DNA of 64,000 nucleotides from Candidatus Kerfeldbacteria bacterium (GCA_016182495.1 JACPGK010000032.1:23917-87916), one strand, 5' to 3'. Counted from the first letter of the stretch, positions 520 to 47,684 are shown. A program made the numbers and translations. The notes: generated by a model not told the origin, from the letters alone.

Positions 520-1071
520 TTATTTCGCCCATTTCTCCGGATTCTCCCAAATATACCGCCGGACCATTTGTAATTCCCGTGGGGTACGAATAATCCGTTC
601 ATAAAACCGGGGTTGCCATTGAAATTGTGGATATCCAATGGATCGAATCCGTTTGGTACATATTGATTTGAATTGATTGATGATGGATCCTAATGTATTG
701 GGTTGCCACCGATGTGTTGTAGAGACGCCCCGCCGGGGCGTCTCTACCCCATGACCGTACGGATGGAATATACCTGGTATATGGTGATGATCACCAATCA
801 CCAGAATGCCATGAAAATGATCCGGCATAATTATCCAGGCATCCAATGTAATATTGGATCGAATAATAGGTGTACGCAACCATTCATCCAATACAATCAT
901 CCCCATATCCGATAATTGTACGATACCATCAATAATATTCCCAAAATATCGACGGTGACGCTGACGGGTACAGAGAGTGACAAAATACCAGCCAGGGGAG
1001 GCATAATTCCAATAAGGTAGACGAATGGATGCAATGCGATAACGATTGGCAAACCGGGTGACCATATACAA
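520..1071 (-). CDS. REP-associated tyrosine transposase (RAYT) / IS200-like HuH transposase
   Basis: HuH motif MPDHFHGILV and tyrosine motif WQPRFYERIIR (compare RAYT WQRGFYDHVIR); a size of about 180 aa fits RAYTs. Confidence 0.75.
   Translation of the reverse strand: MYMVTRFANRYRIASIRLPYWNYASPGWYFVTLCTRQRHRRYFGNIIDGIVQLSDMGMIVLDEWLRTPIIRSNITLDAWIIMPDHFHGILVIGDHHHIPGIFHPYGHGVETPRRGVSTTHRWQPNTLGSIINQFKSICTKRIRSIGYPQFQWQPRFYERIIRTPRELQMVRRYIWENPEKWAK
719..747. repeat. 29-nt perfect palindrome GTAGAGACGCCCCG-C-CGGGGCGTCTCTAC (REP-like, GTAG-initiated) lying inside the RAYT coding sequence
   Basis: Read directly from the sequence: two 14-nt arms that are exact reverse complements around a single C, GC-rich relative to the flanks. 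Confidence 0.8.
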
Positions 1072-7217: not shown

Positions 7218-7290
7218 GCCCGCGTAGCTCAATTGGTAGAGCGACGGTATCGTAAACCGTAGGTCGTCAGTTCAAACCTGACCGTGGGCT
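7218..7290 (+). tRNA. tRNA-Thr (anticodon CGU); no CCA is encoded
   Basis: A cloverleaf was folded by hand: acceptor GCCCGCG/CGTGGGC (one G-U pair), D arm GCTC-AATTGGTA-GAGC, anticodon stem ACGGT/ACCGT with loop ATCGTAA, T arm GTCAG-TTCAAAC-CTGAC. Confidence 0.85.
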
Positions 7291-26934: not shown

Positions 26935-28059
26935 TCAGTATAGCGCGAGATTAATTCGAATGTCACGTAACAGTTGAATATAAAAACTAACATTGTGCAC
27001 GGTGGCTAAGCGGGCAGCTAACGGTTCGTGTACAGAAAATAAATAACGCAGATAGGCTCGACTATAGCCGCTGGTGCACGTGGAACAATCACACAGTGGG
27101 TCAAGTGGTTGAGAATCAGTTTGATAGCTTAAATTATCAAGCGATAATTTAGTATAGTGCACCAGGCTTAAATTCTGTTCCACTAACTGTGAGGCAGTGT
27201 GTACATACACCTGGCCATGACGAGCGTTGCGGGTTGGTAACACACAATCAAACATATCTATCCCTCGCTTCACCGCTTGAAGAATTTGCTCTGGTTGACC
27301 TACGCCCATTAAATAGCGTGGCTGTTCAGCTGGTAATAATGGTACCGTCGCATCCAACACGTGATACATTATTTCTGGCGGTTCACCAACGGCTAAGCCA
27401 CCAATAGCATAACCATCAAACCCAATGGCGCGCAATTCACTGGCGCTGCGGGCCCGTAAATCAGGCCAAGTGGAACCTTGAACGATGCCGAACAGTAGAG
27501 ACCTTTCGCGGGACGTTTCTACACTATGTACCGCTCGACACCGTTCTGCCCAGTTGGTAGTTAAACGAACCGATTCTTCCACCTGGGCACGATTAGCTGG
27601 GTAGCCAGGAAAATAATCAAAACACATTCGAATATCTGAACCAATGGCTGCTTGAATATCCATGGCTAATTCTGGCGTGAAAAAAAATTCATGGCCATCA
27701 ATGTGCGAATTAAAACGCACGCCATCGGGTGATACCAAGCGCAAACGGGCTAAACTAAATACTTGGTAGCCGCCGGAATCTGTTAAAATTGGCTTAGTCC
27801 AGTGCATAAACTGATGTAAGCCACCTACCTGTTTGAGCACCTTTATACCTGGGCGTAAAAATAAATGATAGGTATTGGCCAAGATAATATCATTACCAAT
27901 GGTTGTTAAATCGCTGTTCGCTAAATGTTTAAGGCTGCCCCGAGTAGCAATGGGCATGAAGGCCGGTGTTGGCACCAAACCATGATCGGTGTGCAATTGG
28001 CCACTGCGGGCCTGCTGCCAGCGGTGAGTAATCGTGAACATCGTTTTAATTGGATTCAA
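26935..28059 (-). CDS. tgt: Queuine tRNA-ribosyltransferase
   Basis: DCVLPTRNARHGQ, GVGQPE and the CDCSTC Zn site. Confidence 0.9.
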   Translation of the reverse strand: MNPIKTMFTITHRWQQARSGQLHTDHGLVPTPAFMPIATRGSLKHLANSDLTTIGNDIILANTYHLFLRPGIKVLKQVGGLHQFMHWTKPILTDSGGYQVFSLARLRLVSPDGVRFNSHIDGHEFFFTPELAMDIQAAIGSDIRMCFDYFPGYPANRAQVEESVRLTTNWAERCRAVHSVETSRERSLLFGIVQGSTWPDLRARSASELRAIGFDGYAIGGLAVGEPPEIMYHVLDATVPLLPAEQPRYLMGVGQPEQILQAVKRGIDMFDCVLPTRNARHGQVYVHTASQLVEQNLSLVHYTKLSLDNLSYQTDSQPLDPLCDCSTCTSGYSRAYLRYLFSVHEPLAARLATVHNVSFYIQLLRDIRINLALY

Positions 28060-47286: not shown

Positions 47287-47684
47287 GGGGATGTGTATAT
47301 CATTGATAGGTTCGTTCTTTATAGTATCGGCTAGCAATGCCCAGCATCATTTCAAAGGCTGAAACTTCTAAGTGCAAACTTAGTTCAAAAAGTAAAAGCC
47401 AAGGTGGCCGCGTTATCTAACGCGTTCCGTCCAGCTTTTGCTCCTGTTGTAGCTTAATTCTACAACCATCCAGCAGGCTGATCTCTGATAGGCCTGTGCG
47501 GGTGTCATATTCATCGGGGTCGGTAGCTGTGTAGCTGGTGCTTAGCTGCCTAAACTATGGCCAGATCGGTTAACACTGTTTGGTGTCATTTTCAGGTGTT
47601 AGCTTAAATTCAAACGGCACTACGCTAGTAGATGATATTATCAAGCCAACCTAGACGCGGGCGTAATTCCCGCCATCTCCACCA
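47287..47684 (+). ncRNA. ssrA: tmRNA (SsrA), standard one-piece; predicted tag ANLVQKVKAKVAALSNAFRPAFAPVVA
   Basis: 3' end GACGCGGGCGTAATTCCCGCCATCTCCACCA (T arm plus acceptor plus CCA); the 5' GGGGATG pairs with CATCTCC; the resume context TAAGTGCAAAC resembles E. coli TAGTCGCAAAC; an in-frame TAA lies at 47455; the gene is adjacent to smpB. Confidence 0.7.

Follow-up and report, generated by a model that had tools for sequence, protein, structure and literature searches.

The function of RAYTs and REPs is unsettled, and proposals for it include a domesticated transposase, a replicator of REPs and a nuclease that structures the genome. The closest described systems are those of TnpA_Y1 subclass 2.4 (TnpA_REP), defined by Quentin, Siguier, Chandler and Fichant (2018, BMC Genomics 19:475; PMC6006769) and corresponding to the group 4 RAYTs of Bertels et al. 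(2017, PMC5581495). Proteins of this subclass carry the motifs NH[IFV]H, WQ and YIxNNP and have an insertion between strand beta3 and helix alphaC that varies in both length and sequence; their REPs are of the "long" and the "double foot" (5' GT[AG]G, 3' C[TC]AC) types (PMC6006769). Double-foot REPs lying in-frame between the HuH and Tyr motifs are a hallmark of the subclass, are drawn as stems of 12-13 bp with loops of 3-4 nt, and are read as harmless additions to a peripheral loop with little effect on activity (PMC6006769). Table S1 of that work contains double-foot REPs of the form GTAGAGACG...CGTCTCTAC, for example from Chloroflexus aggregans and Cyanothece, and short repeats in the same linker are mentioned by its authors. 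The presence of a REP within a RAYT gene is thus already documented for subclass 2.4; the host in the present case belongs to the Patescibacteria, and a search of the literature from 2018 on for intragenic REPs or RAYTs in Patescibacteria found nothing relevant.

According to Corneloup et al. (2021, PMC8266576), the GTAG motif, the stem and the loop are what TnpA_REP uses to bind REPs that are folded and single-stranded, and in E. coli only one of the two strands is a REP substrate (PMC8266576). TnpA of IS200/IS605 is likewise a Y1 HuH enzyme that recognizes hairpins in single-strand DNA, but its hairpins are found at the ends of the element and not within tnpA; its Tyr motif has the form Y-x-x-x-Q, and the IS moves as a single unit and is multi-copy. 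Rickettsia palindromic elements, which Ogata reportedly described in 2000, are said to be short palindromic repeats lying in-frame in coding genes. Intragenic GTAG/CGTC REPs in unrelated genes, described by Di Nocera et al. (2013, PMC3733652), resemble the case considered here in being short palindromes that lie in-frame and lengthen the protein by a short peptide where this is tolerated. The hosts of the GTAG/CGTC REPs and of the Rickettsia elements are unrelated genes, and these elements are considered neutral, whereas the host gene here encodes the presumed cognate enzyme, and the site is common to the subclass.

The gene in question lies in a 64,000-nt (64-kb) stretch of DNA from Candidatus Kerfeldbacteria, hereafter the window, and its features are collected in Table 1. 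A deposited protein of 181 aa (P0001, "transposase [Candidatus Kerfeldbacteria bacterium]") is 100% identical to the translated ORF and would start at the ATG at 1065, two codons into the 183-aa reading frame. The window protein was aligned with its 67 closest homologs, of 45-60% identity (alignment A1). It has the HuH motif and the C-terminal catalytic tyrosine that characterize the Y1 HuH superfamily, H85-F-H87 and Y173 being invariant in the 67 homologs, and its Tyr motif, YIWENP (173-178), has the form Y-x-x-x-N-P of class 2 RAYTs (versus Y-x-x-x-Q in IS200; PMC6006769) and aligns with the Tyr motif YIYINP of 4ER8. Scores against the curated families fall below their cut-offs (18.3 bits against 23 for Pfam PF01797 Y1_Tnp, 45.5 against 80 for NCBIfam NF047646 REP_Tyr_transpos), and the 183-aa protein is a divergent Y1 HuH member. 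In an AF2 model (pLDDT 83.6), the core is confident, and residues 93-126, which include the palindrome-encoded residues 109-118, form a low-confidence coil. Foldseek against solved structures places 4ER8, E. coli TnpA_REP with a REP hairpin, at the top (E=1.5e-6), followed by ISDra2 and IS608 TnpA, and a profile search of PDB gives 4ER8 as its sole match. The ORF is the only one of RAYT type in the 64 kb and has as neighbours a methyltransferase-like ORF and typA; the loci of homologs offer varied housekeeping contexts.

Table 1. Coordinates of the features discussed (window positions unless a locus is named)
Feature	Position or member	Strand	Remarks
RAYT / TnpA_REP-like Y1 HuH transposase ORF	520..1071	-	183 aa, TTG start
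Catalytic tyrosine motif Y173-I-W-E-N-P178	538..555	-	Y173 and N177 invariant, P178 at least 90% in A1
W152-Q153, 'WQ' motif of REP-associated subclasses	613..618	-	invariant in A1
Variable linker, residues 93-126	694..795	-	low-pLDDT coil between HuH strand (beta3) and helix alphaC; indel-rich in A1
'Double-foot' REP palindrome, 29 nt, perfect	719..747	.	GTAG...CTAC on both strands; family covariation; frozen codons
HuH motif H85-F-H87, context MPDHFHGI	811..819	-	H85 and H87 invariant in A1
External REPs	L201:3540-3567, L206:5433-5460		internal copies at L201:3280-3308, L206:3328-3356
Arm tandem duplications, proteins	P0032, P0044, P0041, P0037, P0038, P0047, P0052, P0074
Arm tandem duplications, loci	L010, L017, L060, L064, L113, L117
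Nostocales ~95-nt element, forward	L002, L009, L036, L042, L061, L072, L077, L090, L106, L116
Nostocales ~95-nt element, reversed	L007, L013, L041, L056, L074, L080, L087, L118, L120

Set beside subclass 2.4, the locus has the HuH, WQ and Y-x-x-x-N-P motifs, the variable insertion between beta3 and alphaC (residues 93-126 are coil, in a region rich in indels in A1), and an in-frame GT[AG]G/C[TC]AC REP between the HuH and Tyr motifs (residues 109-118 of 183); the GTAGAGACG...CGTCTCTAC foot of Table S1 and a scattered phyletic distribution are shared as well. It differs in its host, Candidatus Kerfeldbacteria, and in two motifs, since DHFH stands in place of NH[IFV]H and YIWENP in place of YIxNNP, each one residue off (the consensus of the homologs in A1 is MPNHxHGI and YIxxNP). 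It differs also in its inner stem, CCCCG/CGGGG, which is absent from Table S1 of PMC6006769, and in lacking flanking REPs, hence a REPtron, in the 64 kb.

The palindrome itself, GTAGAGACGCCCCGCCGGGGCGTCTCTAC at 719-747, consists of two 14-nt arms that are 100% complementary around a single central C (GTAGAGACGCCCCG-C-CGGGGCGTCTCTAC, a perfect 14-1-14 arrangement). An inverted-repeat search of the window for perfect arms of at least 14 nt finds this case only, where by our own arithmetic chance would supply about 64000 x 4^-14 = 2e-4. Within the ORF it reads V109-E-T-P-R-R-G-V-S-T118. The preliminary description, made from the sequence alone, had pointed to a perfect 14-C-14 palindrome at this position, REP-like with its GTAG foot and placed in-frame inside a RAYT ORF, encoding VETPRRGVST, rather than beside the gene, and in both respects it was right. 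The palindrome is 72% G+C, as against 44% for the window and 44% for the host gene. Neither a further good copy of an arm (matches with 3 mismatches occur at chance level) nor any flanking or other double-foot or GTAG-footed hairpin, such as would make up the flanks of a REPtron, was found elsewhere in the 64 kb; the element is therefore single-copy in the window, whereas a REP in the strict sense would have many extragenic copies in its genome. A fuzzy scan of the window for double-foot sequences gave as its next best a 10/14 match at 27495-27522. That weak look-alike (GTAGAGACCTTTCGCGGGACGTTTCTAC, 10/14 paired, reading VETSRERSL) lies in the ORF 26935..28059 (-), of 374 aa, which we take to be tgt-like, and it was rejected as a second REP copy, the fuzzy pattern yielding by our own estimate about 2 per window by chance.

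With GTAG at its 5' end, CTAC at its 3' end and 14/14 pairs, the palindrome is of the double-foot type, and its perfection, together with a GTAG foot at each end, means that both strands show the identical REP. It is predicted to fold into a 13-bp stem with a 3-nt loop, at centroid energies of -15.9 kcal/mol as DNA and -28.8 as RNA (z about -4; no shuffled sequence folds equally well). An earlier objection, that a 1-nt loop cannot form a tight hairpin, fails on this account, and the corollary that a cruciform or a site for a dimeric protein is likelier than a stem-loop finds no support: Quentin et al. draw a hairpin (PMC6006769), and the enzyme family binds hairpins in single-stranded DNA (4ER8, PMC8266576). 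Rfam has no family at the hairpin, and no U-tract lies 3' of the stem. (Two Rfam matches in the window, a tmRNA at 47287-47684 (+), 76 bits, and a tRNA at 7218-7290 (+), are unrelated to the palindrome.) The likeness to E. coli TnpA_REP and its REPtron (4ER8; Messing 2012, Ton-Hoang 2012, Corneloup 2021) lies in the fold, in the GTAG-footed hairpin and, presumably, in single-strand binding and cleavage. The two proteins are about 20% identical in sequence. In E. coli the REPs are extragenic and flank the gene; they are also imperfect, bulged and specific to one strand (REP versus iREP). The window hairpin is perfect, symmetric (both strands being 'REP') and inside the ORF.

A motif that is so well preserved within a gene might owe its preservation either to the peptide or to the DNA. 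Among the 67 closest homologs, conservation of the peptide ETPRRGVST is 90% or more, in the midst of a linker that is hypervariable in length and sequence. The codons are more telling. DNA was compared from 7 homologs whose products are 51-59% identical in amino acids to the window protein in A1; they were picked for having VETPRRGVST, which leaves the choice of codon unbiased. In this small sample, 7 of the 10 codons of VETPRRGVST are identical in all 7 homologs, and variation is confined to the unpaired centre (CGG/CGC/CGT), a single TCT/TCC wobble and, just outside the palindrome, the third base of T118. Elsewhere in the gene, 40 columns with invariant, degenerate residues served as control; there the codon identity averages 0.41 between pairs of genes, and just 3 of the 40 keep to a single codon.

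Variants of the peptide point the same way. In VETFRRNVST, CCC/GGC is replaced by TTC/AAC (GTAGAGACGTTCCG-T-CGGAACGTCTCTAC, 14/14 paired), in VETSRWDVST by TCC/GAC (13/14 paired), and in VGTPRRGAPT, GAG/TCT has become GGG/CCT (13/14 paired). The amino-acid changes in these compensatory variants are radical ones, yet the pairing is preserved. Frozen codons here, scrambled synonymous sites elsewhere in the gene and compensatory variants together indicate that the nucleic acid is the selected object: what is conserved is the DNA sequence and its pairing, with the VETPRRGVST peptide a tolerated by-product. Conservation at the level of the nucleotide suggests in turn a selected cis element, not merely a tolerated insertion, and here the data depart from the harmless insertion of PMC6006769. 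What this adds to the published arrangement is evidence of an internal REP that is conserved base for base and covaries, a point unaddressed in the literature examined. The preliminary description had held that lack of another copy, together with a peptide conserved among RAYT homologs, would mark the palindrome as incidental. The window has no second copy, and the peptide is conserved, yet the palindrome is not incidental, because the codon-level data show the DNA as the conserved entity.

How general the internal REP is can be judged from 80 more distant homologs (metagenomic, 30-46% identity), retrieved with three protein patterns, one of them the peptide itself. A foot-based fuzzy search finds a double-foot palindrome inside the gene in 52 of the 80, at a median relative position of 0.54, and none in the other 28; a strict hairpin finder under-counts, recovering 21 of 80. 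Two reading frames are used, GTA-GAG (VET..VST) in 38 instances and xGT-AGA (RD..RLY) in 16, and the frame that would read TAG in none. At these loci palindromes are about 10-fold denser within the gene (1.27 per kb) than in its flanks (0.12 per kb). The feet vary (GTAGAGACG, GTAGGGGCG, GTAGGGACG), and the inner stems do too. Stems of the class CCCAA/TTGGG, corresponding to peptides with [PS][KN][LF]G, come from one tight protein clade, from which it follows that the internal REP was inherited with the gene; this comparison of peptide class with clade is informative only once the fine classes, which split variants differing in loop bases alone, are merged. Internal and flanking copies are identical in L130, L133, L178, L192 and L210. 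In two close homologs, L201 and L206, an external REP has the inner stem TTGCATGCAA, as against CCCCG-N-CGGGG in the internal copy, so that local external copies need not be templated by the internal one. Compared across taxa, the internal copy is the better conserved, ahead of the external REPs near it.

The same element occurs well beyond RAYT genes. A scan of 185,579 genomes, one per species, for GTAGAGACG-N11-CGTCTCTAC (outer 9+9 nt fixed, inner 5+5 free) yielded at least 120 loci. The 129 matches listed come from Nostocales, Chloroflexota, Bacteroidota, Patescibacteria, Acidobacteriota, Omnitrophota, Rhodothermales and others. In 88 of these 129 the inner 5+5 nt are fully complementary and in 30 more 4 of 5 are; among the matches listed there are 15 distinct perfect inner stems, the centre base being free; some variants of the family use G-U pairs. 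Among the matches listed, 88.7% of cells are paired, compared with 56.8% in shuffles (0 of 500 reach the observed value) and 33-45% in slid controls, a symmetric covariation that by itself fits a hairpin and a dyad-symmetric duplex site alike. A gene-specific motif would be expected to have most of its matches in RAYT genes. Of the 129 matches listed, however, RAYT-like ORFs (a broadened profile included) hold 4, with 2 more just upstream of one, and 123 have no RAYT-like ORF in a locus of up to 8 kb. This is therefore a dispersed REP family and not a gene-specific motif. The matches listed lie mostly in short-ORF or intergenic DNA, in both orientations, with several copies in some genomes, a distribution that is as expected for a REP family. 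The search for more copies, which the preliminary description had proposed, thus came out empty in the 64-kb window and positive in other genomes, where the same family is dispersed.

Long ORFs as hosts of these REPs were mostly rejected: the REP sits at the extreme ends of stop-to-stop frames, and those copies are therefore extragenic. Some, however, are true in-frame cases. One is at L112:5540-7006 (+), where a family REP (reading VETRHCLVST) lies at about residue 357 of a ComEC-like ORF, within its Pfam Competence domain, so that an unrelated gene carries the insertion in-frame. A full-text search of the literature for the 9-mer GTAGAGACG returned only primer lists.

We propose that the subclass 2.4 TnpA_REP has its cognate REP hairpin in this palindrome within its own gene, held in a permissive loop as a seed copy under selection, and we put the probability of this at about 0.6. 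According to the model, a REP of the double-foot type, with GTAG at the foot of either strand, would be embedded in the sole permissive, disordered loop of the protein, that between beta3 and alphaC. When the region becomes single-stranded in replication or transcription, either strand could fold into the identical 13-bp hairpin, which the encoded HuH/Tyr enzyme would bind by way of its stem and GTAG foot, in the manner of E. coli TnpA_REP and its REP. A copy inside the ORF would tie the enzyme to its substrate: loss of the copy would destroy the gene, and horizontal transfer of the gene would carry the copy along, so that the internal REP could serve as a heritable seed, or master copy, of a REP family. 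The internal hairpin may also damp expression of the nuclease. Under these proposed roles (substrate, seed and damping), selection would act on the DNA or RNA sequence. The 64 kb contain no further copy, and the REP 'population' to be seeded is therefore not visible in the window. One might go further and regard the internal REP as a cis element that is obligatory in RAYT genes of subclass 2.4 and has long been maintained there, each base being conserved from phylum to phylum; we put this forward tentatively, and of the two outcomes its failure would surprise us less. If it is obligatory, then the gene would be a minimal, self-contained REP-RAYT unit, and the internal copy could serve as an autoregulatory site, as a seed from which REP families are founded anew after transfer, or in both ways.

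The main rival to a selected seed copy is the published reading, in which a RAYT acting preferentially near its own gene put a REP into the one loop that takes an in-frame insertion without harm. The internal copy would then have no function and would seem conserved in being recent or repeatedly refreshed. Besides the judgment of PMC6006769 that insertions in the peripheral loop have little impact on activity, this reading has in its favour a disordered loop in which indels and tandem repeats abound, family REPs that lie in-frame in unrelated genes (the ComEC-like ORF of L112; PMC3733652), and the 28 of 80 homologs that do without an internal REP. It must contend, however, with 29 nt conserved in 7 lineages whose synonymous sites are otherwise scrambled, with a class of inner stem that tracks the protein clade, and with external REPs that can differ from the internal one beside them. 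Nor is a source of refreshment apparent in the 64 kb, where the window copy is perfect and has no other copy to refresh it, and the equal G+C of gene and window leaves no compositional sign of recent arrival. Weakened by the freezing of synonymous sites, by stems specific to a clade, by the lack of a donor in the 64 kb for the perfect copy and by composition, passive insertion seems unlikely to us, though not so unlikely that it can be neglected. Perhaps, instead, the constraint lies in the message. Transposases are commonly held at low expression, and a stem in mid-message that slows ribosomes, attracts an RNase or terminates transcription early might keep the nuclease low. The strong predicted RNA fold (roughly -29 kcal/mol), the G-U pairs among family variants and the constraint at the level of the nucleotide would all suit such a hairpin, but the family is mostly intergenic and occurs in both orientations, which points to a DNA element, and no U-tract follows the stem. 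A role in the mRNA is in any case compatible with the seed-copy proposal, not exclusive of it; as the explanation of the palindrome we consider it improbable.

The symmetry of the palindrome might also be that of a duplex or cruciform site, either a dyad-symmetric operator for a dimeric protein or a pair of restriction-type sites. Its dyad symmetry is perfect, and a site for a homodimer would give symmetric covariation as well. The inverted GAGACG/CGTCTC that is present in the conserved foot (at 719-747 and in the whole family) is the recognition site of BsmBI/Esp3I. But related members have the feet GTAGGGGCG or GTAGGGACG, without CGTCTC; at least 15 unrelated inner stems are tolerated provided they pair, which fits base pairing better than read-out by a protein; and the associated enzyme family binds single-stranded hairpins. 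The restriction-site idea was rejected because sister REPs carry other feet (GGGGCG or GGGACG), and the BsmBI/Esp3I site is probably a coincidence; duplex sites as a whole strike us as very improbable. Least credible of all, to the point where we would give it almost no weight, is an incidental palindrome, that is, selection for VETPRRGVST with a symmetry in the DNA that is coincidental. The conservation of the peptide (at least 90% in the 67 closest homologs) is what such a reading would have in its favour. Against this, codon choice is frozen at paired bases only, compensatory variants alter the chemistry of the residues drastically, the peptide lies in a low-confidence coil, and the same DNA is found in non-coding DNA and in another frame (RD....RLY). 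The codon test and the compensatory variants refute it, and coincidence, which the preliminary description had allowed for, is excluded.

Should selection act on the internal hairpin, as the synonymous sites suggest, the published view of a harmless insertion would need revising, and the gene would offer a clear case in which the sequence of a protein loop is dictated by a constraint on DNA structure. A frozen putative substrate inside the ORF of its enzyme also makes a compact pair for experiment, a 183-aa protein and a 29-nt hairpin in one gene, in a small Patescibacteria genome with no further copy in 64 kb. For annotation, peptides such as VETPRRGVST, VETLHCNVST, RDVAMQRLY and GRDAINRVST, when met in hypothetical proteins, mark the REP family and are not protein motifs.

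Several further features of these sequences were seen in passing. Tandem duplications of one arm plus a few bases adjoin the full palindrome in the proteins and loci given in Table 1. P0044, for example, has five units of the type ETPRRET[VI] upstream of VETPRRGVST, and other examples are RGVST repeated three times and the 'ggcagggcgtctctac' repeats in L113. Repeats tend to expand in the hairpin region, by slippage or as scars left by the enzyme. In one clade, comprising P0097, P0110, P0112, P0113 and the L212 gene (3001-3768), extra, part-decayed REP units (VETPDSGVS) lie at a second site in the N-terminal half in addition to the usual linker, and a second loop therefore tolerates the element; in the L212 gene, the peptide motifs stand at residues 45, 131 and 172.

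Among Nostocales, where about 100 nt were examined around each match, the REP lies within a conserved element of about 95 nt, TAGACATCTCC-AGAAATTAAATATGCGTTAcCCAGAACCCTT-[GTAGAGACGTAGCAnTGCTACGTCTCTAC]-ATTCATTTTCG-GAGATGTCTA, for which Rfam has no family. With terminal inverted repeats at its ends, this resembles a miniature transposable element carrying a double-foot REP. A MAG of Rhodothermales has five copies with shared arms, GTAGAGACGCATCG-[C/G]-CGATGCGTCTCTAC, at L018 (98, 1410, 1518, 3949) and L019 (1461). Four fall within 4 kb; this REP family is clustered locally, in a genome of high G+C, and the long ORFs around these copies may be artefacts of the G+C. Finally, in a gammaproteobacterial MAG (L069:6024-6112), CCCCG-G-CGGGG is nested in a longer, REPIN-like inverted repeat, ttcctttcaaagagaacaattaacgat ... 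ggtaacgattgttatctttgaaaggaa, and the stem extends past the feet in L007, L043, L066 and L108 as well.
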